This document shows positions 2,363-54,141 of a stretch of 64,000 nt of DNA, piece by piece (positions within the stretch are counted from its first letter, which is position 1; the number at the start of each line of letters is the position of its first letter). The DNA comes from Deltaproteobacteria bacterium (GTDB lineage Bacteria > Myxococcota > Kuafuiibacteriia > Kuafuiibacteriales > Kuafuiibacteriaceae): NCBI GenBank assembly GCA_016703535.1, contig JADJBV010000002.1, forward strand, positions 2,177,721 through 2,241,720, written 5' to 3'. A program made the position numbers and the translations under genes. The notes below the pieces were generated by a model, which worked only from the letters and a program-made list of their open reading frames with translations, was not told the DNA's origin and made no database searches.

Positions 2363-2372
2363 CCGCCCCCAT

Positions 2373-2447
<75 letters not shown>

Positions 2448-2499
2448 TATGCTAAGGGCTCGGAATCCATAAGGTTCCGGGCCCTTGGTGTTTGTGGCC

Positions 2500-4329
2500 T
2501 TAGCCGTTCGACAAGAGCGCGTAGGCCATCGCCGCCGCCAAGGACAGGCCAAGGGCCACCGCGGTGAAGCCGAAGACGCGATAGGAGATGGCCCAAACCA
2601 AGGACGGCGGGGCCTCCATGACCAACTCGCCGAGGCGGCCTTCGGCCTGGAGCCGCTTCCACTGCTCCGGGCGCTCCTCCCGCAGCTCCTCCTCCGAGAT
2701 CCGGCCGTCGAAGATCACCGTGTCCATCGGGAACTTCTCGGGTCGGAAGTGCGTGTTGAAGAAGTGCACGGTGAAGATGAAGCCGGTGGCGAGGAGGGCC
2801 TCGTCCGAGTGCACGATGGTCGCCAAGTTGAAGAACCACCCCGGCACCAGGTGAGCGGCGGCCTCCGGGAACCAGAGCATGAGCCCACTCAGGCCGATGG
2901 CGAACATGCCCCAGAACACGGCCAGGAAGTCGAACTTCTCCCAGTAGGTCCATCGATCGAAGCTGGGCCGCGGCCCTCGGAAGGTGAACCAGCGGAACAT
3001 CGCGATGATGTCCCGAAGGTCGCGCAGGTTGGGGAACAGCGAGTCCGGTCCCCAGAGCCGAGCCCACCAGCTGCCGCCGGGGCGTTGGCGATCGAAGAGG
3101 AAGCGGAAGCTCATCCCCAACGCGACGATGAAGTACCCAAAGGTGATCACCGCGGCGCTGTGGTGGATGGCCCGGGCCCGGTCTGGTCCGCCGACCCAAC
3201 CCATCAGCGTGTGGCCCCAGCCGGTGCCGCTGAACTTCAGCGGCAGGCCTGTGAACGCCAGGGCGAGGAAGCTGACCACCACCACCAGGTGGAGCCCGAT
3301 CTGCACCGGGGTGAAGCGACGATAGGTCTTGCCGTGGGCGCTGGGACGGGGGACCGGGGGCGTCGGGTTGTTGCGGCGTTCGACGAATGCGCGCAGGGCC
3401 CACAACGCTGAGTGCACCCAGAAGAAGAAGAAGGTGCCGACCAGCAGCGAGGTCATTCCGATCCGGGTCCAGTACAACGCCGGGCTCTTCACCCGGTCGC
3501 CGTCTTCGGCGTGGGGGATGAACTCCACGAAGGAGGAGGTGGCGCCGGCGTGGCACTGGCCGCAGGTCGCGACCAGGTGGTTCGGGGAGACGCTGGACTC
3601 GGGATCTTCGGCCTTCCGCACCTCGTGTGAGCGGTGGCAGTCAGCGCAGCCCGCGACCTTCTCCGGGTAGCCGAGCCTCACGTTTTTGCCGTGAAAGCTC
3701 TGGAAAAAGGTCTCGCCGGCGATCCAGGTGACCTCGTTTTTCTCCATCTTCTCCCGATCGTCGTGGCACTCGAGGCAGGCCATGGTGTGGAAGGCGCGCC
3801 CTTTTTCATCGTTGTCGATCTTGGCCACGGTGTGGGTCGCGTGACAGTCGGTGCAGGTTGGTGCGTCGAAGTGGCCTTCCTTCAGGGCGGCGTAGTGGGT
3901 CGAGGCGAAGTAGGGCGCCTGGCGTGAGTGGCACCCGGCGCAGGTCTCGGCGGTCCTGAGCTTGTCGCCCTTGTGTGACTTGAGGGTGTGGATGTCCGAG
4001 TGGCAGCCCACACAACCCGCCGGGAGTCGCTCGCTGTTGTGGATGCTTCCTTCGTGTTGCTCCGCCTCCTTTTCGTGGCAGCGGGCGCATTCGGTCGAGA
4101 CGAAGGCCGCGGCACACTGCTGATCGCCGGAAGTGGGCGCCGCTTGGCTGTCGTCCTTCTGGTGGCAGGCGGTGCAGGTGAGATCAGCGTGGACCGAAAC
4201 GTCGTAGCGTTGCCCCGGCACCTGCTCCTCGTGGCAGGTCAAGCAGGCGCTGGTCCCCTGCGCCGCCATCGCAACGCTCGGAGAGACCAGGAGCTGGGCG
4301 AGGAGCAAGGTGCGGGTGGCGGTAGACAT
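2500..4329 (-). CDS. CbcL-like quinol:periplasm oxidoreductase. An N-terminal periplasmic 9-heme c-type cytochrome is fused to a C-terminal HydC/FdnI-like diheme cytochrome-b membrane domain.
   Basis: 609 aa. A signal peptide is followed by nine CxxCH motifs (CLTCH, CTACH, CARCH, CVGCH, CAGCH, CTDCH, CLECH, CADCH, CGQCH). About 280 aa of polytopic membrane sequence with conserved His residues (HLVVVVSFLALAFTGLPLKF, HHSAAVITFGYF, VHSDEALLATGFIFTVHFFNTHF) is typical of Ni/Fe-hydrogenase or formate-dehydrogenase b-type subunits. Order and heme count match Geobacter CbcL. It is the last gene of the minus-strand operon, 13 nt after the upstream gene. Confidence 0.8.
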   Translation of the reverse strand: MSTATRTLLLAQLLVSPSVAMAAQGTSACLTCHEEQVPGQRYDVSVHADLTCTACHQKDDSQAAPTSGDQQCAAAFVSTECARCHEKEAEQHEGSIHNSERLPAGCVGCHSDIHTLKSHKGDKLRTAETCAGCHSRQAPYFASTHYAALKEGHFDAPTCTDCHATHTVAKIDNDEKGRAFHTMACLECHDDREKMEKNEVTWIAGETFFQSFHGKNVRLGYPEKVAGCADCHRSHEVRKAEDPESSVSPNHLVATCGQCHAGATSSFVEFIPHAEDGDRVKSPALYWTRIGMTSLLVGTFFFFWVHSALWALRAFVERRNNPTPPVPRPSAHGKTYRRFTPVQIGLHLVVVVSFLALAFTGLPLKFSGTGWGHTLMGWVGGPDRARAIHHSAAVITFGYFIVALGMSFRFLFDRQRPGGSWWARLWGPDSLFPNLRDLRDIIAMFRWFTFRGPRPSFDRWTYWEKFDFLAVFWGMFAIGLSGLMLWFPEAAAHLVPGWFFNLATIVHSDEALLATGFIFTVHFFNTHFRPEKFPMDTVIFDGRISEEELREERPEQWKRLQAEGRLGELVMEAPPSLVWAISYRVFGFTAVALGLSLAAAMAYALLSNG

Positions 4330-4342
4330 AAATGTGGTCTCC

Positions 4343-5521
4343 TCAACTGCACAGACCAGCCGCTCGCCGAGCCGTCTTCAGCTTGATGCGTGTCTGGTAG
4401 GAGTCCTTCGGGAAGGCGTCGAGTACGCTGAGCGGCGGCCGCGCCCAGTCGAAGTGGGGCAGGTCCGCGACGGGCAGGAACACCTCTCTCCAGTCGGAGA
4501 GGCCGTGCTCGAGCACGTAGAGGTTGGTGACGCCCTCCATCTTCAGCCGCTTCCAGGCCCGGGCCGCGACCTCTGGGTCATCGCTGATCAAGATGACGAC
4601 GCCGTTGACGGGGAGTTGATTGAGCTGAAAGCGCAGGCCGGGCTCGAGCAGCGCGTCGTATTGGACGTTCTTCGACCCGGCCAGGTGGAAGGTCTCAAAG
4701 GCCTCGGGTGCACGTAGGTCGAGGGTCACGAGCTTCACCGAGGCGTCGTTCCAGGTCTTCACGTACTCGAGGGGGTGCACCTGTTCCTCGCGCCGTTCGA
4801 GGAGCTCCTGGTATTGATCACCAAGCCGCGCCCACTTGTCCTCGGGGGTCATTTCTCCCTTGCTCCAGATGAAAAGCGCCAGGGCCAACGCCGAACCCGC
4901 CGCCGCGACGTACCGCGGGTTCTGCGGAGCCCACCGGACCGGCGCCCCCGCCATGAACGCCTCGGCCCTTTCGGCCGCATAAAAGAGGATCAGGGCCAAC
5001 GCGGTGACCCCCACGACCGTGGCCCCGATCGACCAGCCGAGCCAGTCCGAGACCAGGAGACGTTCGGTATACGACGAGTTCCAGAAGGGTTCGTACAGAG
5101 ACACGGTCTCGGCGAAGATCCCGGCGCCGACGATCGTCCCGACCAAAAAGAGCAGGCCGTCGATCTTGAAGCTGGCCGCCGACACCGCCGAGGTCCCGGG
5201 GCAATAACCGCCCACGACGAACCCGACGCCCATCACCAGACCGCCCACGATCCCCGGCCAGAGGTAGGTCTGGTTGACGAAGATCTTCGAGAAGTCGAGG
5301 TACCCGAGGGAGGCCGCGAGGAAGATGAGCAAACAAGCGGTCAAGATGCCGCTGAACATCGTCTTGAGCACGGTCATGTCGCGGAAGTAGAACTGGGAAG
5401 CGAGCTTCTTCGCGTTCCCGAAGCCCGCCAACTCCAGCACCACGCCGAAGCCGACCCCGATCAGGGCCGAGACCAGGTAGACGAGCCATTTACCATTTGC
5501 CGTGAGATCGAGCGGGAGCAT
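4343..5521 (-). CDS. YeeE/YedE-family sulfur (thiosulfate) transporter half fused to a C-terminal rhodanese-like domain
   Basis: The ORF track gives 4343..5605. I prefer the internal start MLPLDLTANGKW (track-derived 5521), which sits 12 nt after the upstream gene. The membrane part has the YeeE/YedE signature GGYCPGTS. The C-terminal ~130 aa is a rhodanese fold (DLRAPEAFETFHLAGSKNV...VVILISDDPEVAARAW). The catalytic Cys position appears substituted (ISDD), so it may be an inactive rhodanese. Confidence 0.75.
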   Translation of the reverse strand: MLPLDLTANGKWLVYLVSALIGVGFGVVLELAGFGNAKKLASQFYFRDMTVLKTMFSGILTACLLIFLAASLGYLDFSKIFVNQTYLWPGIVGGLVMGVGFVVGGYCPGTSAVSAASFKIDGLLFLVGTIVGAGIFAETVSLYEPFWNSSYTERLLVSDWLGWSIGATVVGVTALALILFYAAERAEAFMAGAPVRWAPQNPRYVAAAGSALALALFIWSKGEMTPEDKWARLGDQYQELLERREEQVHPLEYVKTWNDASVKLVTLDLRAPEAFETFHLAGSKNVQYDALLEPGLRFQLNQLPVNGVVILISDDPEVAARAWKRLKMEGVTNLYVLEHGLSDWREVFLPVADLPHFDWARPPLSVLDAFPKDSYQTRIKLKTARRAAGLCS

Positions 5522-5532
5522 AACTTGTCTCC

Positions 5533-6051
5533 TCAGTTCCAGAGCCGACGGACGAACCAGGCCAACGCGTAGGCGCCCAGGAAGACCGAAAACATGAAGG
5601 CCCACGAGCCAAGGGAGAGCACCGCGCCACCACTCAGCGCCTGCCCCGACGTGCAGCCCCGGGCCAAACGCGCGCCGTAACCCATGATCAGCCCTCCCAG
5701 GACGGCCAAGGCCAGACGTTTGGCTTTCCCGACCCCCGGGCCGGCGATCACCTCGAGCTTTTGCCGTCGGTGGAGGCGGGCCGAAAGGGCGCCCCCGAGG
5801 AGGGTGCCGAGGAGCATCATCACGCTCGAGTGATCGAGCGCGTGTCGATCGCCGCCGGCCATCGCCGCCAGATAACCGACCCGATCGACGTGGGACTGGG
5901 CCACGGTCGCCACCATCGAGGCCTCGATGCGGCTGATCGCACCCGAGGCGCCGAGCCCGCTGTGGGTCAGCGCGAAGGCCGCGAAGAGCACGATCCCAAG
6001 GAGTACACCCGCCGCGTAGGGGTTCATGAACTTGCTTGCATCAGTCTTCAT
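5533..6051 (-). CDS. YeeE/YedE-family sulfur transporter half (small subunit)
   Basis: The ORF track gives 5533..6291. The upstream 80 codons are Arg/Pro junk that overlaps the neighbouring gene. I place the start at MKTDASKFMNPYAAGVLLG (6051), 173 aa. It is a polytopic membrane protein with the YeeE/YedE motif RGCTSGQALSG. It overlaps the octaheme cytochrome stop by 11 nt. Confidence 0.7.
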   Translation of the reverse strand: MKTDASKFMNPYAAGVLLGIVLFAAFALTHSGLGASGAISRIEASMVATVAQSHVDRVGYLAAMAGGDRHALDHSSVMMLLGTLLGGALSARLHRRQKLEVIAGPGVGKAKRLALAVLGGLIMGYGARLARGCTSGQALSGGAVLSLGSWAFMFSVFLGAYALAWFVRRLWN

Positions 6052-7480
6052 AACGAATCCCTCCCGCGGGGTCTCGCTCGTAGCCGAGCGCCTTCCAGTC
6101 GAGGCGGCCCTTGGGGCCGTGGCAGTCTTGGCAAACCAGCGCCTCTTTGGCCGGCGCGACCATGTGGGTGATGGGCCAGTACATATGGGTCTTGGTGAAG
6201 TCGAACTCGCCGCTGTAGGGCAGGCCGGCGGTCGCCATCCCCTTCTTCGCCGCGGCGGCCCAGTCGAACTGGGTCCAATATCCGCCCTCACCGCTGGTGA
6301 TCGGAGGGATCAGGATCTTGTTGATCGGATCCCAAATCTGTTTGGCCCGGTGGATCTTGAAGGGCCACAACTTGGCCTTTGGATCGTCGCGGCCACCGAG
6401 CGGTTGGTTCATGGCCTGATCATCGCTGGTGACGGGATCGCCCATCAGATAACGATCCATCTTCCCGTTGTACCAGGCGTACTCCGGGCGAACCTCGCCG
6501 TCGTAGCGGAACTCTCCTTTGATCTTGAGATACTCGTGGGTCGAGTCCTGGCGCGCCTGGTCGCCGGCCTTGGACCAATCCCAGTCCATCTTGGTCGGGT
6601 ACTTTCGAGCGAAGGCGGGGACGTGGCAGGTCTGGCAGGCCAGGCGATCGAGGTGTTTGTTTAGCACCGCGTCCTTGTGCGGATTTCCGCTGTGGCACTT
6701 GTCGCAGCCGAAGCGGGCCGGGTGAGAGGCCTCGCTGTAGGTCGCGTTCATCTTCCCGGGCACCACGTGTCCGTGGGCTTCGTGGCAGTCCGTGCATTGG
6801 AAGTTGAGCTTGCCCATGTGCACGTCGAGTTCCTCGTTGGGGTTGAGCAGCGAGTCATCGAGGTCGCCGTGTTTGACGCCCATTCCTCCTCCGCCGTTGA
6901 AGTGGCAGCTCCCGCAGTTGTCGCGGCCGGGGGCCCGGACGCTGCCCGCTGCGGCGGCGAGGTCGACCTGTTTGCCGGGGAGGCCGCCCTTCTCTTTGGC
7001 GTAGCCTCCGGAGCCGTCGTGGCAAGCGAGACAGTCGACGTTTTCTTGTCGGGTGAAGTCGAAGTTGTCGTCGGTCCACCCGTAGCCGGCGTGGCACTTG
7101 GTGCAGGACGCCCAGTTCCCGGACACGCTGATGCAGAAGTTGTTGATCAGGTTCTTCTTCCCGATCGGGATCGACTTCCCATCCCGGATCGCGTCCCCCG
7201 ACAACCAGGTCCAATGGGCCGTCTGCATGACCTCCTTGGCGGATTCGGGGTGGCAGGAGAGGCACTTCTGGGTCACCTCCGGCCCGGTAGCGATCTTCTC
7301 CTTGAAGAAGGCGGTGTGATCGAGGTGCGGCTTGGCCCGGTCGGCGAGGGGGTTTCGGGGCGGGGTCGAGATCGCCGTCGAGAGGTGGCTGCCGGGCGCG
7401 GGTTGGGTCGGCCGGGCAGAGATGAGGAGGCCAGCCCCCCCCGCGGCCAAGGCCCCCAAGATGAGCGCTCGGTGTTTCAT
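6041..7480 (-). CDS. Octaheme c-type cytochrome, tetrathionate-reductase (OTR) family
   Basis: Start at MKHRALILGALAAGGAGLLISARP (signal peptide); the track ORF extends to 7549. Eight CxxCH motifs are present (CLSCH, CTKCH, CLACH, CGSCH, CTDCH, CDKCH, CQTCH, CQDCH) in ~480 aa. Conserved OTR-like blocks include NFCISVSGNWASCTKCH and GKLNFQCTDCHEAHGH. It is the first gene of the minus-strand operon. Confidence 0.75.
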   Translation of the reverse strand: MKHRALILGALAAGGAGLLISARPTQPAPGSHLSTAISTPPRNPLADRAKPHLDHTAFFKEKIATGPEVTQKCLSCHPESAKEVMQTAHWTWLSGDAIRDGKSIPIGKKNLINNFCISVSGNWASCTKCHAGYGWTDDNFDFTRQENVDCLACHDGSGGYAKEKGGLPGKQVDLAAAAGSVRAPGRDNCGSCHFNGGGGMGVKHGDLDDSLLNPNEELDVHMGKLNFQCTDCHEAHGHVVPGKMNATYSEASHPARFGCDKCHSGNPHKDAVLNKHLDRLACQTCHVPAFARKYPTKMDWDWSKAGDQARQDSTHEYLKIKGEFRYDGEVRPEYAWYNGKMDRYLMGDPVTSDDQAMNQPLGGRDDPKAKLWPFKIHRAKQIWDPINKILIPPITSGEGGYWTQFDWAAAAKKGMATAGLPYSGEFDFTKTHMYWPITHMVAPAKEALVCQDCHGPKGRLDWKALGYERDPAGGIRYED

Positions 7481-7581
7481 GCCCATGCTCCAATGCATCG
7501 GCAACACCACTCGTAACTCGATGAAATCACGATGTGACTTGTGCCACACGGGTCGATGGTGCTACGTTTTGTCGCACCGAC

Positions 7582-8979
7582 ATGACACACGATGTTGCAG
7601 ATCCGCGAAACACCATCGCGCTCCAGGCCGTGCACATCGCCTTCGGCTCTCTCGGGCGGGCCTGCCTCGCCCTCGACCGGAACTTTCGTATCGTTCACGC
7701 CTCACCCCTCCTCGATGAGCTCGGGGGTCAGGGGTCGGCGGATCGGCTGGTCGGCACCGACGTCGCGAGTCTGCTGGGGGCGGAGTTGTTCGGGCCCGGC
7801 GGCCGGATGCGGTCGGCCCTCGAGGGCGGCGAACGTCGGGAGGGTTGGCGAGCAACGCTGGCCACGCCGGATCGCCGACGTTTGGTTTCGCTGTCGGCCT
7901 GCCCCTTATTGCACCCTCCATCGGGTCCCTGCACGCCGGGCGTCGAATACCTGGTGGTGCTGCGCCCGGCCGAGGAGGAGCTGACGCTCCCGCAAGCGGG
8001 CCTGGGTTTGGTCGGGCGCTCCCGAGCGATGGATCGGGTCATCCGCCTCCTGGATATGCTGCGCCACAGCGAAGCGACGGTGCTGATCGAAGGAGAAAGC
8101 GGCACCGGCAAGGAGGTGTTGGCGCGGCTCATCCACGACCAGTCACCCCGCGGGCATGGTCCCTTCGTCCCGGTGGCGCCGGCCGCGCTGCCGGAGGATC
8201 TCCTGGAGAGTGAACTCTTCGGCCACGTCCGGGGTGCGTTCACCGGCGCACACAAAGACCGGGTCGGCAGGTTCGAGGTCGCGAACGACGGCACGATCTT
8301 CCTCGACGAACTCGGCGAACTCCCGCTCCACTTGCAGGTCAAGTTGCTGCGCGTACTCCAGGACCACACCTTCGAGCGGGTGGGAGAGAACACGCCGCGC
8401 CGGACCCAAGCCCGGATCATCGCCGCGACCAACCGCAACCTGAAGAAGGAGATCGCCGCGGGGCGCTTCCGTGAAGATCTCTACTACCGCCTGCGAGTGG
8501 TCCCCATCGAGGTCCCTCCTCTGCGCGCCCGGCGTGAGGACATCGAGCCCATCGCCCAGCTCCTGCTCTCCCGGGCCGGCGAACGCCTCGGTCGCTCCTT
8601 GCTCTTGGCCCCCGAGGTCCTGCGGATGCTTCTCTCCTATCCTTGGCCCGGCAACGTACGCGAACTGGAGAACGCCCTCGAATATGCCACGGTCGTTTGT
8701 CGCGGCCAGACGATCTCGCCCGAAGATCTGCCGCCGGAGGTCCAAAGCGGCGCCCTGGGAAGTCCGTCCCCGCCCGAACCTGCCCTGCCGCCGATGCCGG
8801 CCTCGAGTCCCGCTCGAGACGATGAACGTGACGCCCTGCTGAGCGCGCTGCAAGCCCACGGCTACCGGCGCGCCGAAGTGGCCGACGCGTTGGGCATGAG
8901 TCGGAGCACGCTCTGGCGCAAGATGAAACAACACGATCTCGCTCGAGCTCGTCCGCCTTCGTCACGCCGGGCCCGGTGA
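7582..8979 (+). CDS. Sigma-54-dependent transcriptional activator (bacterial enhancer-binding protein) with an N-terminal sensor domain
   Basis: AAA+ sigma54-interaction domain (ESGTGKEVLARLIHDQSPR...GAFTGA...ELGELPLHLQVKLLRVLQ...IIAATNRNL...FREDLYYRLRVVPIEVPPLRAR) and a C-terminal HTH (RRAEVADALGMSRSTLWRKM). An alternative start is at 7534. It is divergent from the sulfur operon with a ~100 bp gap. Confidence 0.8.
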   Translation: MTHDVADPRNTIALQAVHIAFGSLGRACLALDRNFRIVHASPLLDELGGQGSADRLVGTDVASLLGAELFGPGGRMRSALEGGERREGWRATLATPDRRRLVSLSACPLLHPPSGPCTPGVEYLVVLRPAEEELTLPQAGLGLVGRSRAMDRVIRLLDMLRHSEATVLIEGESGTGKEVLARLIHDQSPRGHGPFVPVAPAALPEDLLESELFGHVRGAFTGAHKDRVGRFEVANDGTIFLDELGELPLHLQVKLLRVLQDHTFERVGENTPRRTQARIIAATNRNLKKEIAAGRFREDLYYRLRVVPIEVPPLRARREDIEPIAQLLLSRAGERLGRSLLLAPEVLRMLLSYPWPGNVRELENALEYATVVCRGQTISPEDLPPEVQSGALGSPSPPEPALPPMPASSPARDDERDALLSALQAHGYRRAEVADALGMSRSTLWRKMKQHDLARARPPSSRRAR

Positions 8980-8981
8980 GT

Positions 8982-10298
8982 TTAGTCGTGGGTCTCGAAG
9001 ATGAAGGGGTAGGTCACCACCACCACACCGCCGCCTTTGGGGGCGGGGAACTTGAGGGAACGCATCACTTGGGTCAGGCAGGACTCGACCTTGTTGTTGC
9101 CGAGGCTGGTCTCTTTTAGGCTCGCGTCGGCGACGGCGCCGTTGGGGGCGATGGTGAAGTAGACCGCTGCTTTGCCGGCCAGGTTGGGATCGGCTTGGAG
9201 CTCCTTTTCGTAGCAGAACTTGAAGCGGGGCAGGGCGCTCCGTATCACCCGGGCGATCTCGTCTTTGCTGAGGCCGTCGCCCATCTGGATCGGTCGACCG
9301 CCGCCGCGAATGGCGGGGCCCCGCTTTTGGCCGGGGAGCCCCACGTCGATGCCCACGCCCGGGCCCGAGCCGGGGCCTCGCCCGACGCCGCCGATGCCCA
9401 AGGAACCTCCACCACCTCCGGCTTGGTGACCGCGGCTGCCCATGCCCCCGAAGCCGCCCGCGTCGGTGAGCTCTTGGCCGCGCAGTCCGCCCATGGCCAG
9501 GTTGAGGCCGGTGCCGAGGCCTCCCGATCCCAGGACGGTGGCGGCGGCGTTGCCCGGTAGAGACGCCAAGATGCCCAGCAGGCCGGCGCTTTTTGCGATC
9601 TTCGTGTTGGCGGCGACGGTGCTGGGATCGACCCGGGGTGCGCCGCGGTTTTTGGAGGGGGCGGCGTCTTTGAGGGGCGCCTTTTTCCCGAGGCGTCCTT
9701 CCTTGCCAGGCTGGCCTCCGGCGGACTTTTTGGGGGCCGGAGGCTCCTTCTGGAGTTGCACCATCCTCACGTGCCCTCGGCTCCTCCACAACTCCTCGAT
9801 CGTCCGGGCGGACCTCGGCGTGATCCAGGCGGTGGCGATCAAGAAGGCGTGCACCAACATCGAGATCGCGAACAAACGCGCCATCGGCCAGTCGGTGAAC
9901 GCGGCGGCCCGGCCGCGGGTGGCGTGCCCTTCGACCATCGCGAAGTGGTACCCGAGCCCCTCGAAGTTGTAGCTCAGGCTCTGTTTCGGGCCCAAGGTCT
10001 GGACCCGCTCGTGGCTCAGTCGTTCGGTCCGCCGCGGATCCTCCCGGTGGAGTTCGGCGCCGGCCGGTACGGAGATCTTGGCCCCGCCCGAAAACCGGTC
10101 GGCCAAAACTCGGGCCTCACTTTGCCCGGGGATCTGCAAGTTGCCTTGCAAACTCCCCAAGGTGATCGGCCCCAGGTGTTCGAGTTGGGCGGCGTCGAGC
10201 CGACCGTCGCCCCAAGTGATGGAGACAAAAAGGGCTTGCTGATCATCGGCGGGGGTGGCGCCGCGAGGGGCGAGGGGTCGGCGGAAGGGACGAGTCAT
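8982..10298 (-). CDS. AgmX/PglI-like membrane protein: N-terminal cytoplasmic domain, one TM helix, Gly-rich linker, TonB-C-like C-terminal domain
   Basis: 438 aa. A TM segment (LFAISMLVHAFLIATAWI) is followed by a long Gly-rich region (GGFGGMGSRGHQAGGGGGSLGIGGVGRGPGSGPG). The C-terminal ~90 aa (SKDEIARVIRSALPRFKFCYEKEL...VVVVTYPFIF) resembles the myxobacterial gliding-motility AgmX/PglI / TonB C-terminal fold. Confidence 0.55.
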   Translation of the reverse strand: MTRPFRRPLAPRGATPADDQQALFVSITWGDGRLDAAQLEHLGPITLGSLQGNLQIPGQSEARVLADRFSGGAKISVPAGAELHREDPRRTERLSHERVQTLGPKQSLSYNFEGLGYHFAMVEGHATRGRAAAFTDWPMARLFAISMLVHAFLIATAWITPRSARTIEELWRSRGHVRMVQLQKEPPAPKKSAGGQPGKEGRLGKKAPLKDAAPSKNRGAPRVDPSTVAANTKIAKSAGLLGILASLPGNAAATVLGSGGLGTGLNLAMGGLRGQELTDAGGFGGMGSRGHQAGGGGGSLGIGGVGRGPGSGPGVGIDVGLPGQKRGPAIRGGGRPIQMGDGLSKDEIARVIRSALPRFKFCYEKELQADPNLAGKAAVYFTIAPNGAVADASLKETSLGNNKVESCLTQVMRSLKFPAPKGGGVVVVTYPFIFETHD

Positions 10299-26368: not shown

Positions 26369-27171
26369 TCACCTTGCTCCTCCTGCTCTCGGCGCCTACG
26401 CCCGAGGCTCAAAAGTTGGCCCAGCAGAGTTTTGCGGAAGCCGAGCTGGCCTTCGGTCGCCGGGAGTACGCCGCCGCCGCCGCCGCCTTCGAACAAGCGG
26501 CCCGGGCCGTGCCTCACCCCGCCCCTTGGCTCAACGCCGCTGAAGCCTGGGAGAAGGCCGGCGCCATCGATCGGGCCGCTGAAGATTGTGAGCAGGCCCT
26601 GGCGGTGCCGGAGGCCTCGGCGGTGCATCGGCAGGCGGCGTTTGCCTGTCTGGATCGACACGGCCCCCAGCTGGCCTTCCTCGAGGTCCAAGGTCCCAGC
26701 ACCGGCACCGCGCGGATCGACGATCGGAGTTCGGATCTGCCGACCCGTCGTTGGTTGCGCCCGGGCCGATATGTCCTGCGCCTCGAGGACCGAACCTCGG
26801 GGACCCAAGAGGAAGAGGTGTTGAACTTGGTCGCCGGTCAACGTTTGACCCGGGCCTTGACCCCGCCCCCTCCGCCGCCGGCGTTGCCCCGGGTGTTGAC
26901 CCAAACCCCGACCTCGAGCCCTGCTTTGATCGCTGAAAGCCCAGGTCCGGGGATCGCCACCTGGGCCGCCTTTGGCGTGGCCGGGGGCGCGACCCTCGGC
27001 GCCGCCATCTTGGGCGCACTGACGGTCTCGGCCCAGAGCAACTTCGAGGCGGCCCCCAGCCAAGACGCCGCCGATACATTTTATGGGCGACGCACTGGGA
27101 CCAACGTGGCGTTGGCGGTGGCGATCGGCGCGGCGGGGGCGGGGCTGCTCTTTTGGGCCCTCGAGTTGTAG
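26365..27171 (+). CDS. Hypothetical membrane-anchored protein (helical repeat N-terminal domain, C-terminal TM helices), translationally coupled to the kinase
   Basis: ATGA overlap with the kinase stop. Features are a signal-like N-terminus, TPR-like helices and C-terminal Ala/Gly-rich TM helices. Confidence 0.5.
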
Positions 27172-27181
27172 GCTCGGGCCC

Positions 27182-28531
27182 GTGAGCGGCGAGACCCTCT
27201 TCCATCCACACGCCGGCGGCCCGACCTTCGCGGTGCACGCGGTGGATCTCGAGGTGCAAAAGGGCCCGGACCTGGGACGTCGCGCCCGGGTCGATCGCCC
27301 CACCTTCATCGTCGGGACCGGCGTCAGCGCCGACCTGCGGCTCAGCGACGGCACTGTGTCCCGGGAACACCTGCGACTTTTCCTCGATCCCCTGGGCCTG
27401 CGGATCCGGGACGAAGGCAGCAAAAACGGCACCTGGTTGTCCGGGCTGCGGCTCAGCGACGGCCTGTTGACCCAAGGCACCACGCTGGAGCTCGGCAACA
27501 CGACGCTCAAGGTGCACCTCGAGTCGGGGCCGCTGGATCTGCCCCTCTCCAGCGAAGGTCACTTCGGCCGAGCGCTGGGGGTGTCGGCGTCGATGCGCCA
27601 CCTCTTTGCGGTGTTGGAGCGGGCGGCCCGCTCCGACGTGACCGTGTTGCTCGAGGGCGAAAGTGGCGTGGGCAAAGAGGTGCTGGCCCGCTCCCTCCAC
27701 GAATCCTCAGCTCGGGCCGAAGGGCCCTTCATCGCCGTCGACTGTGGGGCCATCCCGGCCAACCTGATGGAGGCCGAACTTTTTGGGCACGAAAAGGGTG
27801 CCTTTACCGGCGCCGACGCCCCTCGCTTGGGGCTCTTCGAACAGGCCCAAGGCGGCACCTTGTTCCTCGACGAGGTCGGCGAGTTGCCCCTGGAAATGCA
27901 ACCCAAGTTGCTGCGGGTCTTGGAGACCAAAGAGGTGCGGCCTTTGGGGGGCACCGCAGTCCGCAAGTTGGATTGCAGAGTGGTGGCCGCCACCAACCGC
28001 CGGCTGCACGAGTCGTCTCAAAAGGGCGAGTTTCGCCAAGACCTCTACTACCGCCTGGCGGTGGCCCGGGTGACCGTGCCGCCCCTCCGAGATCGCCCCG
28101 ACGATGTGTTGCCCTTGGCGACCGAACTCTTGCGGGTGGCGCAACGGGATCGCAGCGCCGTATTGCCGACCGACCTGGCCGCCTTGTTGCTCGGTTATCG
28201 CTGGCCCGGCAACGTGCGCGAACTCCGGAACGTGGTCGAGCGTTTTGCCTTGTTGGGCGTGCGGGACGCGCCCGCCCTCTTCGACGCCCAAGCCCAGGAG
28301 CGAGGTGGCGCGGCGGATCTGTCGACCTTGCCGTACCACGAGGCCCGTCGGGTGGCCCTCGAGCGCTTCGAGCGAAGTTACCTGCCCGCGGTCTTGACCC
28401 GGGCCGGCGGGGTGGTGGCCAAGGCCGCCGAGTTGGCCGAGGTGGCTCGCCCCAGCTTCTACCGAATGTTGGATCGGATCCGCCCTCCGGGTGAACACCG
28501 AGGCGAAGAAGAGCCCCCTGAAGGCCGCTAG
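27182..28531 (+). CDS. FHA-domain sigma-54-dependent transcriptional activator
   Basis: N-terminal FHA domain ([28 protein letters not shown]...GSKNGTW). AAA+ sigma54 domain ([61 protein letters not shown]) and a C-terminal HTH. I prefer the GTG start at 27182; the track start at 27083 overlaps the upstream gene by 88 nt. Confidence 0.8.
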
Positions 28532-45434: not shown

Positions 45435-47249
45435 TCATCGCTCCTGGATCTCGACCTCGGCGCCTTCGACGTGGAACTCGACCCGACGGTTTTGGGCCCG
45501 ATTGTCTGGGCTGTTGTTGGGGACCAGCGGTTGAGTTTCGCCGAAGCCCGCGGGCTCTAGCAGACCTTGGTCCACGCCTTGGGCGACCAGGTAAGCGACC
45601 ACACTCTTGGCCCGCTTCTCCGAGAGGCGCAGGTTGCCCGAGTCGTTGCCGACGTCGTCGGTGTGGCCTTCGACCCGAACCTTGGTCAACTTGTTCCGCT
45701 TGATCACCGCGGCCACGTCGTTGAGGAGCGCGTAGGAGCGGGCCTCGATCACCGCCGAGCTGGTCTTGAAGTAGACCTTGTCCAAGATCTCGATCCGCTC
45801 ACCCTTCAGCACCGCCAGCTGCTTCTTGGCGCAGCCGCCGTTCTCCAGGACCCCCGGCTCGTCGGGGCACTGATCCAGGCGATCGGCGATGTTGTCGTGG
45901 TCTCGATCGGTGTCGGGGCAGCCCTTGTTCTCCTTGACCCCCGGCGCCGAAACGCACTTGTCGGCCACGTCGAGCACGCCGTCGGCGTCGTTGTCCGGAT
46001 CCGGGCAGCCGTCTTGGTCCTCCCACTGGTCCACGTCTTCGGCGTCGTTCGGGCACTGATCGGCCTTGCCGCGCAGACCGTCGCCGTCGGGGTCGGGCAC
46101 CTCGTCGGGGCAACCGTCCTGATCTTCGTGTTCGTTTTGGGTCTCGGGCTCGAGGCGACACCGATCGGCGGTGTCCGGGATCTGGTCGCCATCGTCGTCG
46201 GGATCGACGCAGCCGTCTTGGTCTTCGAACTCGTCCTTGTCCTCCGCCACGTCCGGGCAGGTGTCGTCCGGATCGTTCAAGCCGTCGCCGTCGCTGTCGG
46301 TGGGCGGGGCCCAGGTGTAGCGCAGGCCGAGCAGGGCCCGGAAGTCGGGGGTGCCGTAGGCCTTGGTGAGGCCCACGCCGCCCGCGGCGTAAGCGGTGAG
46401 GGGGATCGGGAAGTCGTAGGCCAGGCCAAAGTCGAGTTCGCTGGCGACCGCCTCCGCGGACTCGAAGGCCAGATCCAACACCGTGGCCATCGAATAGGAG
46501 AGGTCCAGCTCCAGCGGCGGGCCGCCCACCTCCGCCAGCCGGGCGCCGAGGCCGACCTTCAAGAAGAACTCGTCATCGACGGCGAGGTTCACGAAGTCGA
46601 CCTTGTTGCGCATTCGAAAGCCGACGTTGCCGGCCAAGCGCATCAGGCCAAAGCTGCGAGAGGCCAAGAGGGCCGGGCGGAAGCCCACGGTGTCGTCGCC
46701 GAAGTAGGCCTCTTCGGTGGCGGTGGGCAAAGACACCGCCGCCATCACCGCCAGGTCCAGGCCCTGATCGGCCTGGCGCAAGATGCGGATCTTGGGGATC
46801 AGCCTCAGATCTCCGAGGCCAGCGCTGCTCAACTCCGGGAGGGTCCCGACCACCCCGGGCAAGAGGTCACTGCGGCTCTGGCCGAGGATCACCGGCAAGG
46901 CCAAGCCCAGCTCCACCCACTCGAACAGGGCGATGGCCCCGCCGACCTCACCACCCCAACGGGAGGCGACCAGGGAACCTTGGCGTTCGTCGTCGCTCTC
47001 TCGATAGAGCACCAAGGGGTCGTTGGCGTAGCCCATCCACAACCAAACGTTCCACGACAAATGCCGTGGAACACCGGCCCACTCGGTGTCCAGAATGCCG
47101 CCCCGATCGATGGTCAAGGCGAAGCGTTCGATGCCGAAGCTCCTTCGCTCCGGCACGTTCTGGGCGTTGGCCTGCTGGGCTGCCGCGCCGGTCGCCAACA
47201 GGAACACCAGCGCCGTGGTGACCCGCCGCCGTAGGCCTGAGGTGCGCAC
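45435..47249 (-). CDS. OmpA-family protein module: signal-peptide-like N-terminus, beta-rich domain, thrombospondin-type-3 (TSP3) Ca-binding repeats and a C-terminal OmpA peptidoglycan-binding domain. It lies in the same continuous frame as the giant ORF below.
   Basis: A candidate GTG start at 47249 gives VRTSGLRRRVTTALVFLLATGAAAQQANAQ (n-region, h-region, AXA). TSP3 repeats follow (DSDGDGLNDPDDTCPD, EDQDGCVDPDDDGD, repeated). The C-terminal OmpA domain is VYFKTSSAVIEARSYALLNDVAAVIKRNKLTKVRVEGHTDDVGNDSGNLRLSEKRAKSVVAYLVAQGV...NRRVEFHV. No stop codon separates it from the upstream module. Confidence 0.55.
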   Translation of the reverse strand: MRTSGLRRRVTTALVFLLATGAAAQQANAQNVPERRSFGIERFALTIDRGGILDTEWAGVPRHLSWNVWLWMGYANDPLVLYRESDDERQGSLVASRWGGEVGGAIALFEWVELGLALPVILGQSRSDLLPGVVGTLPELSSAGLGDLRLIPKIRILRQADQGLDLAVMAAVSLPTATEEAYFGDDTVGFRPALLASRSFGLMRLAGNVGFRMRNKVDFVNLAVDDEFFLKVGLGARLAEVGGPPLELDLSYSMATVLDLAFESAEAVASELDFGLAYDFPIPLTAYAAGGVGLTKAYGTPDFRALLGLRYTWAPPTDSDGDGLNDPDDTCPDVAEDKDEFEDQDGCVDPDDDGDQIPDTADRCRLEPETQNEHEDQDGCPDEVPDPDGDGLRGKADQCPNDAEDVDQWEDQDGCPDPDNDADGVLDVADKCVSAPGVKENKGCPDTDRDHDNIADRLDQCPDEPGVLENGGCAKKQLAVLKGERIEILDKVYFKTSSAVIEARSYALLNDVAAVIKRNKLTKVRVEGHTDDVGNDSGNLRLSEKRAKSVVAYLVAQGVDQGLLEPAGFGETQPLVPNNSPDNRAQNRRVEFHVEGAEVEIQER

Positions 47250-50200
47250 CGGCGCCGCTAGAAGTGCCCTCCGGCGCCCGAACACGCCGAACGCGAGCAG
47301 AAGCAGCCCAACTGCCACCGAGCCGAGGGGCCCTGGAGTCGGCCCGTGGGAGGTCGAACAACCACAGCCGCCCCCCGCCAGGCCGATCCCGTCGACGACG
47401 CCGTCGCCGTTGTCGTCGACGTCGCAGCCGGCCCCTTGGCCGTCAGCGTCCAGGTCCAACTGATCCGGGTTGGGCAGGGCCGGACAGTTGTCGCTCCCAT
47501 CGGGGACGCCGTCGCCGTCTTGGTCGGCGCTGCCCAGCTGATCGTCGGCCGGGTTGAGCGGATCTCGTTCACCGTCGTCTTTGCGCCCGTTTTGGTTGGT
47601 GTCTTCGTCGCCGTCTTCGGCGCCGCCGTTGTCGGTGTCCGGGTCGACCGCCGAGGTGGTGGTGCCCGGATCCGCGTCCGGCACGAAGAAGCCCGCCCCG
47701 ACGTTGGTGTCGGCGTTGGGGGTGGTCACGCCGAGTTCGGTGCCGTCGAAGAGGCCGTCGTCGTCCGAGTCGGGATCCAGCGCGTTGATCGCGCCGTCCT
47801 GATCGCCGTCGACCCCGGGGTTGGGTTCGTCGCCGTCGAGCACGCCGTCGTCGTCGCTGTCGGCGTCTTGGGGATCGGTGCCCAGGTCGGCCTCTTCGTC
47901 GTCGCTGAGGCCGTCCTGGTCCGAGTCGGTCGGGGCCTGGTCGTCGCTGCCCAAGTTGGGATCGGTCTCGCCGCCGTCGATGCGGCCGTCGTGGTTGGCG
48001 TCTTCGGCGCCGTCGTCCACGCCGCCGTCGTCGGTGTCTTTGTCGAGGGGATCGGTGGTGGTGGTCGGATCTTGATCCGCCACGAAGGCTCCGGCGGCGA
48101 CGTCGGTCCCGGTCCCCGGGGTGGTCACGCCCAGCTCGGTGCCGTCCAAGATCGCGTCGTTGTCGCTGTCCGGATCCAGGGCGTTGATCAGACCGTCGCC
48201 GTCGCTGTCCACCCCGGGCCGCGGTTCAGCGCCATCTTTTATGCCGTCGTCGTCGCTGTCGGCGTCATCCGGATCGGTGCCGAGCTGGACCTCGACGTCA
48301 TCGGGCAAACCGTCGCCGTCCCGGTCGTTGGCTTGGTCGTCGCTCGGGTCCAGCGGATCCCGCTCCCCCGGATCCCGTTGGCCGTCGAGATCCAGGTCCT
48401 CGAGGCCGTCCGAGAGGCCGCCGCCGTCGCTGTCCGGATCCACCGCCGAGGTGGTGGTGTTGGGATCGGCGTCGGGCACGTAGTTCCCCGCCGCCACGTC
48501 GGTGTCGGCGTTGGGTTGGGTGACGCCCCGTTCGGTGCCGTCGAAGAGTCCGTCGCCGTCGCTGTCGGCGTCCAGCACGTTCACTCGGCCGTCGCCGTCG
48601 GTGTCGTGACCCGGGTTGTTCTCTTGGCCGTCGATCACCCCGTCGTCGTCGCTGTCGGCGTCCGCCGGATCCGAGCCGAGGGCGGCCTCTTCGTCGTCGC
48701 TGAGGCCGTCGCCGTCTCCATCGGTCGGGGCCACGTCGTCGGCGGCCAGGTTGGGGTCGGTCTCGCCCGCGTCGATGCGCCCGTTGTGGTTGGCGTCTTC
48801 GGCGCCGTCCTCGACCGAGCCGTCATCGCTGTCGGCGTCGAGGGGATCGGTGGTGTTCGACGGATCCGCGTCCGGCACGAAGGCGCCGCTCGAAGCGTCG
48901 GTGCCCGGGCCGGCCACGGTGACGCCCAACTCGGTGCCGTCGAAGATCCCGTCGTCGTCGCTGTCCGGATCGTTGGCGTTGACCAAGCCATCCCCGTCGC
49001 TGTCGACGCCGGGCATCCGTTCACTGCCATCCCCAACGCCGTCGTCGTCGCTGTCGGGGTCATCCGGGTCGGTCCCGATCGCCACCTCTTCATCATCGGG
49101 CAGGCCATCCCCGTCCCGATCGTTTTCACAGGCGTCGCCGATCCCGTTGCTGTTGCCGTCGATCTGGTCGGTGTTGATCACCGTCCGGCAGTTGTCGGTG
49201 CCGTCGACGATGGTGTCCATGTCGCTGTCCAGGTCTCGGAAGTCCGGGGTCCCGTCGCCATCCGAGTCGACCGGCGGCGTGGTGCCCAGGTTGTCCCCGG
49301 CCTCGTCCTCGTCGTTGACCCCGTCCATGTCGCTGTCCAGGTCCAGGTAGTCAGCGGTGCCGTCGTTATCGGTGTCGACCGGGGCCGTACCCAGGTTGGT
49401 GTCGCCGGCTTCATCCCGGTCCAAGATCCCGTCGTCGTCCGAGTCCAGGTCCTGGAAGTTGGGGGTGCCGTCGCCGTCGGTGTCGCCGGTGCCCTCGACG
49501 TCGTCGGGGATGCCGTCGCCGTCGGTGTCCAAGAGGTCGTCGTTGCGGTTCCTTGGGTTCCGTTCGCCGGCGTCGACCCGACCGTTGCGATCGGCGTCTT
49601 CCACGCCGTCGTTGACCGTGCCTCGATCGGTGTCGGCCAAGACGGGGCTGGTCGTGGTGGTGGGATCCGCGTCGGCGCGGAAGTTGCCCCGGGCCACGTC
49701 GGTGGCGGTGCTGGTGGTGGTCACGCCCAGTTCGGTGCCGTCGAAGATCCCGTCGCCGTCCGAGTCCGGATCGAGGACGTTGATCGTGCCGTCGTTGTCG
49801 CTGTCGTCGGCGTAGTTGGGTTCGTCACCGTCCAACACGCCGTCGTCGTCGGTGTCCGCGTCGTTGGGATCACTCCCCAGCCGCACCTCTTCGGCGTTGG
49901 ACAGGCCGTCGCCGTCGGTGTCCGCCGAGGGCAGGCGGTCGTCGCTGGGATCCAGGGGGTTGCGTTCCCCAGCGTCGACCCGGCCGTTTTTGTTGGTGTC
50001 TTCGGTGCCGTCCCGCAAGCCGCCCCGGTCGGTGTCGGGATCGATCGGGCTGGTGGTGGTGGTCGGATCCGCATCGGCCACGAAGTGCCCGGCCGCGACG
50101 TCGGTGTCGGGACCGGCGGTGGTCACGCCGAGCTCGGTGCCGTCGTAGAGGCCGTCGTTGTCCGAATCCGGATCCAAAAGGTTGGGCGCGCCGTCGGCGT

Positions 50201-53200: not shown

Positions 53201-53996
53201 CCGTGGAGGTGCGGTCGAACTGGCCGTCTTGGTTGAGGTCGCAGATCAAGTGATAGGTTCCGGTGACGTCGGTGGTGAAGCTGAAGAGGCCCGTCGAGGT
53301 CCCGGGGACGATGGCGCTGCAGGTCTCCGCCGCGCCCACCTGGGTGAAGGTGAAGTTGCTGACCGCCGGCACCAAGGGGTTGTAGGTCGCGAGGGTCGGG
53401 GGGTTGAGGTAGATCTGGTAGAGCGGCGTGAAGGTGTTGCCGGCGCTGGGCACGCTGCGGCCGGCGTTGGCGCCGTTGACGCCCGTCTGGTTCATGCCCA
53501 TGTTCCAGATGAAGCCCTGGAGTCCATTGAAGCGAATGTCGATGACCGCGTTGCGGTTGGCAGCGCCGCCGTTCACCAAGGCGTAAAGTGAGGTGTTCAT
53601 CGCCGATGCGCCGCCGGCGTAGGTGCCGGTGTCGAAGTACCAGCGGGTCGACCACAACCGCCCGCCCGCTTGCACTGGGTTGTTGACCCGCAGGTCCCAG
53701 GCGCCGCCTTGGTCGTTGGTCAAGGTCACCCGATAGGCGCCGTTGCCGTTGCCGTTCAGGTTGGCGGTGGCGCCGTTGCCCAAGGTGGCGATCTGGGTGC
53801 CGGCCGGATTGAAGATCCGGGCCTGGCCCGCGCCGCTCCAAGTGATGGTCTCGACGGTGGCGTCCAAGATGTCGACGTTCAACACCGTGGTGTTGACCAT
53901 GTCCGATTGGGTGCCGAGGGTCGCGGTGCCTTCGGCTCGGGCGATCAGCGGAGCCAACAAAAGGGAGGCGAAGATCGACGTGGCAATTCGCGACAT
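47250..53996 (-). CDS. Giant secreted repeat adhesin module (about 2250 aa): signal peptide, unknown beta-rich N-terminal domain, ~5 cadherin-like/Ig-like repeats, ~9 large TSP3 Ca-binding repeat modules, then a MYXO-CTERM-like sorting signal
   Basis: Signal peptide MSRIATSIFASLLLAPLIARAEG. Cadherin-like repeats (VTVTAVNDTPVANNNAVTVAEDGTV..., about 100 aa each) lie around 51.0-52.2 kb. Dozens of TSP3 motifs (DTDGDGLxDxxE, DSDDDGxxDG) lie around 47.4-51.0 kb. The frame ends with GCGCSTSHGPTPGPLGSVAVGLLLLAFGVFGRRR (Cys-rich GCGC, TM helix, RRR). The reading frame then continues into the OmpA module without a stop. Confidence 0.55.
47262..47375 (-). other. MYXO-CTERM-like tripartite sorting signal (GCGCS / ~13-aa spacer / TM helix / RRR) located internally in the 8.56-kb ORF
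   Basis: Translation GLAGGGCGCSTSHGPTPGPLGSVAVGLLLLAFGVFGRRR was verified codon by codon on the minus strand. A TAG lies 2 codons downstream in the +1 frame. Confidence 0.6.
47400..51000. repeat. Intragenic tandem repeats: about 9 copies of a ~420-bp module encoding TSP3 repeat units (DSDxDGLxDGTELGVTTP..DTDVAAGxFVxDADPxTTTDPLDxDTDxGGVxDGxEDxNxNGRxDxGExDPNL)
   Basis: The periodicity is visible in both the nucleotide and protein sequence. The antisense shadow ORFs 47346..50900 and 51618..53591 come from the same repeats. Confidence 0.7.
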
Positions 53997-54141
53997 TGAA
54001 GCGAGTTTATCGTTCGAATCGGTGGCGAACGTAAGTTCTCGGCTCCCCCAACCGATCCGGGCCGCGCTGGCCGCGGGAGATGCCCCAGGATGAGACGTCC
54101 GGGTGGGGTCGACGAGGTGGCCGCGGGGATGGCCGCTGCGG

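Follow-up and report, generated by a model that had tools for sequence, protein, structure and literature searches.

In this study, we report a four-gene operon in a 64,000-nucleotide stretch of the genome of Deltaproteobacteria bacterium, a member of the Myxococcota (assembly GCA_016703535.1, contig JADJBV010000002.1, positions 2,177,721 to 2,241,720, forward strand), referred to below as the window. The genes encode a cytochrome c of the octaheme tetrathionate reductase (OTR) family, two membrane proteins of the YeeE/YedE type (B and C), the second of which continues into a rhodanese-fold domain and a cysteine-bearing tail, and a CbcL-type quinol oxidoreductase (D). From the sequences of the operon and its relatives, we propose that it would be controlled by sigma54 and would encode a periplasmic reductase of sulfur compounds, driven by quinol, that works together with its own cysteine carrier arm and with an import channel lined by cysteines, a reading that we regard as evenly poised between right and wrong. 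All of the folds involved are known; their assembly and the carrier-arm domain appear to be new. OTR was crystallised in 2004 and its cellular role is still debated, and the near-obligatory linkage of its gene to genes for a quinol dehydrogenase, a YeeE-type channel and a Cys-arm domain gives a concrete biochemical hypothesis for that role. The literature searchable in full text, a scope that leaves out subscription journals, yielded no description of the cassette or of the Cys-tailed rhodanese-like domain and treats OTR as a lone marker gene. This agrees with the preliminary description of the locus, which was made from the letters alone and did not recognise the combination as a described operon.

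The four genes lie on the minus strand in the order OTR (6041-7480), B (5533-6051), C (4343-5521) and D (2500-4329). OTR and B overlap by 11 nt, and gaps of 11 nt and 13 nt separate B from C and C from D. The cluster contains neither a sigma70-like promoter nor terminator-like sites in excess of chance expectation. A protein 100% identical to C is encoded in JGI metagenome 3300056850, with identical gene order. The four genes are a real operon, which we regard as a confirmed observation; the operon, the coordinates and the gene calls of the preliminary description, which had rested on gaps of 13 nt or less, all hold, and the profile searches that it proposed (TIGR04315, PF04143, PF00581 and PF01292) each gave a match above the cut-off on the expected protein. 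The OTR reading frame is taken to start at the ATG at 7480, which has a GGAG ribosome-binding site 7 nt before it and a signal peptide encoded after it; in the public gene call, the protein begins at an upstream GTG and has 502 amino acids.

OTR (479 amino acids, with a signal peptide and eight CxxCH motifs) scored 556.2 bits against TIGR04315 (cut-off 375) over model positions 2-440 of 440, and aligned over its full length with the OTR of Shewanella oneidensis (PDB 1SP3; E 6.7e-135). In an alignment with 12 diverse relatives (alignment A1), the haem motifs CLSCH, CTKCH, CLACH, CGSCH, CTDCH, CDKCH, CQTCH and CQDCH were all invariant, as were Lys108 (codon 7157-7159) and Cys116 (7133-7135). The segment GKKN...NNFC aligns with residues 55-64 of the 1SP3 chain, so that K108 corresponds to Lys56 and C116 to Cys64. 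Lys56 is reported to be the ligand of the catalytic haem in 1SP3, and Cys64 the adjacent active-site residue (Mowat et al. 2004). These data directly support OTR as an octaheme enzyme, predicted to be secreted, that shares with the S. oneidensis protein the catalytic haem ligated by Lys and the Cys next to it, and the family assignment made in the preliminary description is borne out. The two proteins are alike in the eight CxxCH motifs, the catalytic-haem Lys, the adjacent Cys and secretion. They differ in their surroundings, as the S. oneidensis enzyme is thought to take electrons from CymA and has no such partners reported, whereas the gene described here sits in a fixed cassette that also encodes a Cys-arm protein, a YeeE channel in two pieces and a quinol dehydrogenase of its own.

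The N-termini in alignment A1 also differ between lineages. In Bacteroidota, Ignavibacteria, Oligoflexia and Opitutaceae, the signal sequence of OTR is followed by a lipobox-like Cys (for example ATSC, LTGC or LTAC), which suggests that these orthologues are lipoproteins; the OTR of the window and those of other Myxococcota have a plain signal peptide.

D (609 amino acids) has a signal peptide, nine CxxCH motifs (residues 29-260) and a cytochrome b domain of six transmembrane helices (residues ~290-609). Its match to PF01292 is just above the cut-off (31.2 against 30.1 bits), and it also matches multiheme Pfam families. It is 49-50% identical, over the full length, to 616-amino-acid proteins of Desulfuromonas versatilis and Pelobacter seleniigenes, and across both groups of alignment A3, D and the Desulfuromonadales proteins, the nine CxxCH motifs, nine further His residues in the c domain and six His residues in the membrane domain are invariant. 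Published CbcL has a periplasmic region (residues 30-279) with nine bis-His haems, six membrane-spanning helices and two haems of the b type. D is thus directly supported, at the level of sequence, as a CbcL-type inner-membrane protein with a predicted dihaem-b quinol site and nine periplasmic c haems, as had been claimed for it. The likeness to CbcL of Geobacter sulfurreducens (GSU0274) concerns domain order and size, and is drawn from the published architecture and the Desulfuromonadales relatives rather than from the GSU0274 sequence itself. CbcL homologues are near-universal and single-copy in the group of D. versatilis and P. seleniigenes. In these two, the CbcL-type genes stand alone and serve extracellular electron transfer via PpcA-type carriers; D, by contrast, is the last cistron of an OTR cassette and presumably serves OTR. 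In both of these species (loci L089 and L090), the CbcL-type gene was observed directly downstream of atpZ/I/B/E-like ATP synthase genes.

B (172 amino acids) matches PF04143 with 80.9 bits over profile positions 175-309, and C (392 amino acids) with 52.6 bits over positions 4-160 of 310 (cut-off 27). The best alignment of B is with residues 245-329 of the YeeE of S. thermophila (6LEO/8J4C) and places B Cys133, within ARGCTSGQAL, on Cys293; this residue is at least 90% conserved over 71 sequences. In C, Cys107 within GGYCPGTS is invariant in 69 of 69 orthologues and is equated with Cys91 by the Pfam register. The membrane part of C (residues 1-235; 4817-5521) comprises H1-H6 of the YeeE fold followed by two further transmembrane helices, TM7 (165-186) and TM8 (203-220). 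YeeE has an N-out/C-in topology with H1-H6 and H8-H13 inverted relative to each other, and its N- and C-halves are matched by PmpB- and PmpA-type proteins, for which heterodimer formation has been proposed. B and the membrane part of C resemble YeeE/TsuA and PmpA/PmpB in having the PF04143 fold in two half-size proteins with one pore Cys per half, and the profile and alignment data directly support their prediction as the halves, opposite in orientation, of a channel with the YeeE/YedE fold, with one invariant pore Cys in each.

The preliminary description had called this pair a two-piece YedE/YeeE thiosulfate-type transporter. The two-piece part is upheld by the PF04143 halves; the thiosulfate-type part is not established, since both proteins score below the TsuA equivalog thresholds (36.8 against 400 bits and 30.8 against 645 bits) and the YedE ones (YedE/FdhT, 51.6 against 350 bits; TIGR04112, 24 against 200 bits). 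NCBIfam had no specific model for B, C or D. Characterised YeeE imports thiosulfate and needs a Cys-bearing partner; no TusA-like partner (YeeD/YedF) was found in the window cassette or in loci L001, L003, L005 and L086. Further differences from YeeE/TsuA-YeeD and PmpA/PmpB are the two helices and the predicted periplasmic domain that the C half adds, and the linkage of B and C to a respiratory cytochrome, where YeeE/PmpAB-type genes are linked to assimilation or persulfide dioxygenase genes.

One orthologue of C, from the metagenome-assembled genome (MAG) of an uncultured bacterium (L034:7292-7294), has TGA at the codon for Cys107 (GGY-TGA-PGTS) with the frame continuing, and is a candidate for selenocysteine. 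A hairpin downstream of this TGA is unconvincing as a selenocysteine insertion sequence (SECIS) element (z = -1.8). Selenoprotein listings contain selenocysteine forms of YeeE (GUxSG) and of TIGR04315 proteins; together with the L034 codon, these forms argue that the cysteines concerned are chemically active.

The soluble domain of C (residues 236-377; 4391-4816) scored 34.3 bits against PF00581 (cut-off 22.2). AlphaFold2 modelled it with a predicted local-distance difference test score (pLDDT) of ~85-92, and the Foldseek matches were single-domain rhodaneses (TMt 0.6-0.72). The active-site loop reads I-S-D-D-P-E in the window and S/A/G-N/D-D/G-E in orthologues, with Cys in 0 of 69. Because the catalytic Cys is absent throughout, the domain cannot be a classical sulfurtransferase; the rhodanese noted in the preliminary description is therefore retained as a fold and lost as a sulfurtransferase. 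Periplasmic single-domain rhodaneses such as Sud and PspE likewise accompany anaerobic sulfur-compound reductases, with the difference that they have the canonical active-site Cys, where every orthologue here lacks it and has an acidic loop.

After this domain, C ends in a C-terminal arm, RIKLKTARRAAGLCS-COOH (4346-4390). Orthologous tails follow the pattern K(I/V)K(L/I)...GG(G/L)C(G/S)-COOH, the window having ...AAGLCS and most relatives ...GGCG or GGCGG. The penultimate Cys391 (codon 4349-4351) and Gly389 were invariant in 69 of 69 genome-derived and 50 of 50 database sequences, and the last ten residues are predicted to be disordered (pLDDT 25-37). On this pattern of conservation, the reactive residue is predicted to be Cys391 on the flexible tail, and not a rhodanese active-site Cys. 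A HMMER search with the soluble domain gave 333 representative clusters at E <= 1e-3; of the 149 retrieved (representatives at 50% identity), 91 end in G-[GLA]-C-[GSA]1-2. The Cys-less rhodanese with a GGCG tail is thus a large protein family, and one without a curated model.

This tail resembles two known carrier arms. SoxY reportedly has a C-terminal GGCGG arm with the substrate-binding Cys (Sauve et al. 2007), to which the tail described here is close, though not the same. It shares with C a Gly-rich disordered C-terminus with one invariant Cys, a periplasmic location (predicted for C) and a place beside sulfur redox enzymes, and a SoxY-type 'GGC' motif is mentioned in the literature. DsrC/TusE similarly has a penultimate Cys on a flexible C-terminal arm and belongs to a system tied to a quinol-linked membrane module. 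The arm described here differs from both in sitting on a rhodanese fold, itself either anchored in the membrane or joined to half of a channel, with neither a SoxY nor a DsrC fold and no SoxZ, SoxAX, SoxB or DsrAB genes; Pfam gave no match to SoxY (PF13501) or SoxZ in C or its neighbours. In lucinid symbionts, otr adjoins a divergent soxY-soxZ pair, which places a second, unrelated Cys-arm carrier beside OTR and provides an independent precedent.

The side of the membrane on which the arm lies was deduced from charge distribution and from natural gene splits. Over 69-71 orthologues, predicted inner loops hold more Lys and Arg than predicted outer loops in both C (8.6 against 2.1) and B (9.4 against 4.0), and the H10-H11 loop of B has a mean of 5.25 Lys+Arg over 71 orthologues. 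Being of the C-half type with a basic H10-H11 loop, B would be N-in/C-in. C is of the N-half type, and its inner-loop charge would place the end of H6 outside, with TM7 running inward and TM8 outward, which would leave the rhodanese-like domain and its tail on the periplasmic side. Many relatives of the soluble domain are separate proteins of 190-240 amino acids with a basic N-region, one hydrophobic helix and then the 'GQP..KWE' segment that follows TM8 in C. At L092:22-1796, the order is B (172 amino acids), a 201-amino-acid YeeE half ending after TM7 and a separate 213-amino-acid Cys-tailed protein; at L091:2-890, the preceding gene product stops just past TM7 with a basic tail and a separate Cys-tailed protein follows (210-213 amino acids over the two loci). 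A natural split at the TM7-TM8 loop, with TM8 as a signal anchor, supports a periplasmic domain independently of the charge counts. The rhodanese-like domain and tail are therefore most likely periplasmic, beside OTR, rather than a cytoplasmic acceptor.

The conservation of the cassette was assessed by scanning one genome per GTDB species with the OTR alignment; the 80 best loci and earlier loci gave 81 non-redundant loci, in which partners were detected by tblastn, the queries being the proteins of the window and the type-2 fusions described below. Sixteen of the 81 had the arrangement OTR-B-C-CbcL-like of the window (type 1; OTR at least 60% identical to that of the window), and 53 had OTR-[800-920-amino-acid fusion of multiheme c and PF01292, of the cytochrome b561 kind]-B-C (type 2). 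B and C were present with the fourth gene truncated or shifted in two, seven were cut by a contig end (six of them already showing the type-2 fusion), and three were evaluable and lacked the partners. B and C thus adjoin OTR in 71 of 74 evaluable loci (96%), across at least 11 phyla and in the company of a multiheme-c/cytochrome-b fusion of one type or the other, a linkage far beyond chance, and the gene-neighbourhood comparison proposed in the preliminary description came out in favour of linked genes. The carriers include Myxococcota (Myxococcaceae, Archangium and Polyangiaceae MAGs), Bdellovibrionota, the Bacteroidota/Ignavibacteria/Chlorobi group, Chloroflexota, Verrucomicrobiota, Eisenbacteria, Desulfobacterota, one gammaproteobacterium, Spirochaetota, Actinomycetota (Acidimicrobiia) and Gemmatimonadota. 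It is found commonly among uncultured members of the Chloroflexota, Bacteroidota/Ignavibacteria and Myxococcota from sediments, groundwater and sludge, where the presence of 'otr' is routinely taken to mean tetrathionate respiration and its partners are ignored.

The type-2 fusion (806-923 amino acids; L024:10410-12830 and L040:10286-13057) lies between OTR and B and has a strong PF01292 match, and a search with the CbcL b domain recovered no type-2 protein at 1e-5. Judged by sequence, size and position, the quinol-dehydrogenase fusions of the two types are non-orthologous, a case of non-orthologous displacement, which indicates that the link from quinol to OTR is what is functionally required, rather than a particular gene. 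In two of the loci lacking B and C, both of the Geobacteraceae/delta type, the gene immediately upstream of OTR encodes a DUF3373 protein (L069:6817-8181 and L077:7239-8825), and no SoxYZ gene was present among the neighbouring ORFs scanned in either. This suggests that the DUF3373-linked OTR branch has a different, possibly outer-membrane-linked context. The distant octaheme/rhodanese clusters of Dethiobacter (20% identity) were judged to be something else.

A sigma54 enhancer-binding protein (EBP; 465 amino acids, 7582-8979, plus strand) is encoded divergently from OTR across a 101-bp region (7481-7581), in accordance with the ~100 bp previously described. It matches PF00158 (228 bits) and PF02954 (HTH_8, 45 bits) and has the GAFTGA motif; its N-terminal domain is weakly PAS-like (PAS_4, 20.8 bits, below cut-off). 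Orthologues 61-74% identical to it are divergent from the cassette in the Myxococcota loci L001 (type 1) and L045, L046 and L054 (type 2). A sigma54-like element, TGGCAC-N5-ACAT, lies 62 nt before the OTR start (7546-7531, minus strand) and has a perfect -24 box. Better -24/-12 matches occur at orthologous loci, namely GGCAC-N5-ACGCA (L045, L046 and L054), TGGCACAGGCATTGCT (L042), TGGCATAGCCACTGCT (L013) and GGCGCGAACGCTGCA (L001). Taken together, these sequences make sigma54 control of the operon likely. A second sigma54-like match, TGGTGTTGCCGATGCA (7509-7494), was rejected as a promoter, since only 13 nt separate its end from the start codon and a transcript begun there would lack the GGAG ribosome-binding site. 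Other lineages have other regulators beside the cassette, such as Rrf2 in L024 and a MarR-like protein in L005.

Two further features of the regulatory region and its activator were observed. In EBP residues 1-140 (7582-8000), two Cys residues, in GSLGRxC(L/M)ALD and GxCxP, are kept in all five Myxococcota orthologues. Thiol-based sensing has been reported for the sigma54 activator FisR, and by analogy the Cys pair would be consistent with a thiol sensor of redox state or of sulfane sulfur. The window (7561-7570, minus strand AAAACGTAGC) shares with L001 and L054 a (G/A)AAACGTA motif next to the start codon of the activator gene, which is a candidate for a site bound by the activator or for the promoter of the activator gene itself.

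In the mechanism that we propose, electrons would pass from menaquinol through D to OTR and on to the substrate. The tetrathionate/thiosulfate couple is at +198 mV and the CbcL c-domain at ~-194 mV, a relation that sets the direction from quinol to substrate and excludes the reverse. Thiols readily react with tetrathionate to form S-thiosulfonates. The tail thiol would capture an oxidised sulfur species (tetrathionate or another polythionate, thiosulfate, polysulfide or sulfite-derived sulfur) as a mixed disulfide, and OTR would either cleave the arm adduct reductively or reduce the free anion, with the arm taking up what is formed. Sulfane or thiosulfate, as the product, would then move from the arm to B Cys133 at the outer mouth, to C Cys107 and into the cytoplasm, the net effect being respiration or detoxification of a sulfur-cycle intermediate coupled to the capture of its sulfur. 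Candidate substrates are tetrathionate, other polythionates, thiosulfate, sulfite (as for the Shewanella OTR), polysulfide and selenite. The preliminary description had claimed a complete electron path from the quinol pool to a periplasmic sulfur oxyanion. The quinol-oxidising D and the anatomy of OTR support its first part; since a 2026 Shewanella genetic study leaves the physiological substrate of OTR unsettled, the sulfur-oxyanion end is an interpretation.

A narrower version of this proposal, which we advance tentatively and think rather improbable as it stands, is that the substrate of OTR would be not a free anion but a sulfur adduct on the membrane-tethered periplasmic Cys arm, and that the sulfane sulfur would be passed covalently through the two pore cysteines to the cytoplasm. 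OTR, arm and D would then resemble DsrAB-DsrC-DsrMKJOP, where quinol electrons reduce carrier-bound sulfur, as a periplasmic, haem-based counterpart. If true, this would be the first defined trans-membrane cysteine relay, and the cassette bears in any case on the question, raised for YeeE, SoxT and PmpAB, of whether sulfur crosses the membrane by covalent thiol relay.

Several points weigh against the proposal in its broad or narrow form. In the 2026 Shewanella study, deletion of otr had no tetrathionate phenotype, and sulfite was proposed instead; with the purified Shewanella enzyme, turnover of tetrathionate was slower than that of nitrite and hydroxylamine. In the literature, the idea that YeeE-type channels pass sulfur along a covalent Cys relay is likewise no more than a hypothesis. 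For its membrane part, C had no meaningful match in the PDB by phmmer, so that its assignment as a half rests on the Pfam register, the assignment of B and the charge statistics; its AlphaFold2 model was poor (pLDDT 41-51 for residues 81-160) and for this reason was not used for topology, and the topology of C is a deduction from sequence. The likeness of the tail to SoxY and DsrC is that of a Gly-rich Cys-bearing C-terminus, with no homology of fold. In the sigma54-like element of the window, AT replaces GC at -12 (expected TGGCAC-N5-TTGC). Three evaluable loci of Desulfuromonadales type (L069, L072 and L077) have OTR without partners, and the 80 loci sampled are those closest to the window OTR, drawn with search patterns that would miss the Shewanella type, so that the Shewanella and Geobacter branches are barely represented.

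The strongest competitor is a simple additive module, in which OTR, fed by the CbcL-like D, reduces free tetrathionate to thiosulfate, B and C import that thiosulfate for assimilation, the tail Cys does for the channel what cytoplasmic YeeD/TsuB does for E. coli YeeE, and no substrate is protein-bound. We consider it possible although on balance doubtful. It draws on the reduction of tetrathionate by OTR in vitro, the 36-fold rise in otr transcripts upon addition of tetrathionate to sediment microcosms, the thiosulfate import by YeeE with a Cys-bearing partner, the favourable thermodynamics from quinol to tetrathionate, and the economy of one reaction supplying the substrate of the other. Set against this, B and C fall far under the TsuA equivalog cut-offs (36.8 against 400 bits), the partner domain is placed on the periplasmic side, unlike YeeD, and the Shewanella genetics speak against OTR as a tetrathionate respiratory enzyme. 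The additive module also leaves unexplained the invariant carrier-type arm and a near-obligatory linkage that persists despite other sulfur sources.

The pore and arm cysteines could alternatively serve selenium or tellurium, with OTR reducing periplasmic selenite and the Cys arm and YedE-like channel taking up the reduced selenium for detoxification or selenoproteins. Thiol arms readily bind selenium, the best NCBIfam matches of B and C are to YedE/FdhT selenium-transport models (51.6 and 24 bits), D and OTR weakly match ExtN/ExtO cytochromes of a selenite/tellurite operon, and the orthologue at L034 has a candidate selenocysteine codon in its pore. All of these matches (YedE/FdhT, TIGR04112 and ExtN/ExtO) are, however, far under the curated cut-offs (350, 200 and 200 bits), the window genes have no selenocysteine codon, the L034 hairpin is not convincing as a SECIS (z = -1.8), and selD, selA, selB and yedF were not seen in neighbourhoods with called genes. 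We therefore regard a selenium function as improbable.

A still less probable explanation is detoxification of nitrogen oxides, with OTR as a quinol-fed nitrite/hydroxylamine reductase and the YeeE-type genes as unrelated passengers. Nitrite and hydroxylamine are indeed the best substrates of OTR in vitro, and OTR is structurally related to NrfA and HAO. Linkage of B and C to OTR in 96% of the loci that could be evaluated, spread over at least 11 phyla, in conserved order and with overlapping or near-touching genes, is incompatible with passengers, and chemistry of sulfur or selenium is what the invariant thiol arm and the cysteines of the pore suggest. An oxidative, SoxXA-like direction, in which thiosulfate or sulfide is either oxidised by OTR or joined by it to the arm, and electrons enter the quinone pool via D, has in its favour the resemblance of the arm to SoxY, the thiol-thiosulfate conjugation catalysed by the haem enzymes SoxXA and TsdA, and the position of otr beside soxYZ in sulfur-oxidising symbionts, but is hardly credible given that a couple at +198 mV cannot reduce CbcL-type haems near -194 mV, or menaquinone, and that Myxococcota and most of the listed hosts are not known as sulfur lithotrophs.

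The cassette is native in composition. Its third-codon-position GC content is 0.84-0.89, against 0.82 +/- 0.04 for 33 likely genes of the window, and its tetranucleotide distance gives z < 0.4, so that the compositional comparison suggested in the preliminary description showed no anomaly. The cassette is flanked, as described there, by tRNA-Pro(GGG) (2372-2448, plus strand) and, beyond the EBP gene, by a gene for a protein with a match to the AgmX/PglI C-terminal domain (8982-10298, minus strand). Neither a repeat of the tRNA-Pro 3' end nor att-like direct repeats were found there, and no integrase is present. Recent horizontal transfer, or an island at tRNA-Pro, was rejected on the grounds of the native composition and the lack of att-like repeats and integrase. 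The flanks are unlike those of the closest Myxococcaceae locus, L001, which indicates that the cassette has moved on a longer timescale. The view that it is an unexpected capability for an aerobic-looking myxobacterium is weakened by its presence in the other Myxococcota named above. Repeat-finder families (GTGGCA...GCAG) at 3544-4250 and 6620-7110 are the reverse complements of CxxCH codons, and not mobile-element or att repeats.

The remainder of the 64-kb window is ordinary Myxococcota-type core DNA, with genes for Era, Der, MnmA, a class II aminoacyl-tRNA synthetase, a Ser/Thr kinase and PilZ proteins. A second sigma54 activator, with an FHA domain, is encoded at 27023-28531 (plus strand); an FHA-sigma54 activator is also found near the cassette in the Myxococcaceae MAG (L001:1-643), the flanks of which are otherwise not syntenic with the window. 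A giant ORF of 2903 amino acids (45435-54146, minus strand) contains bacterial immunoglobulin/cadherin-like and TSP3 repeats and a C-terminal OmpA domain, and is adhesin-like, of the cell-surface type.

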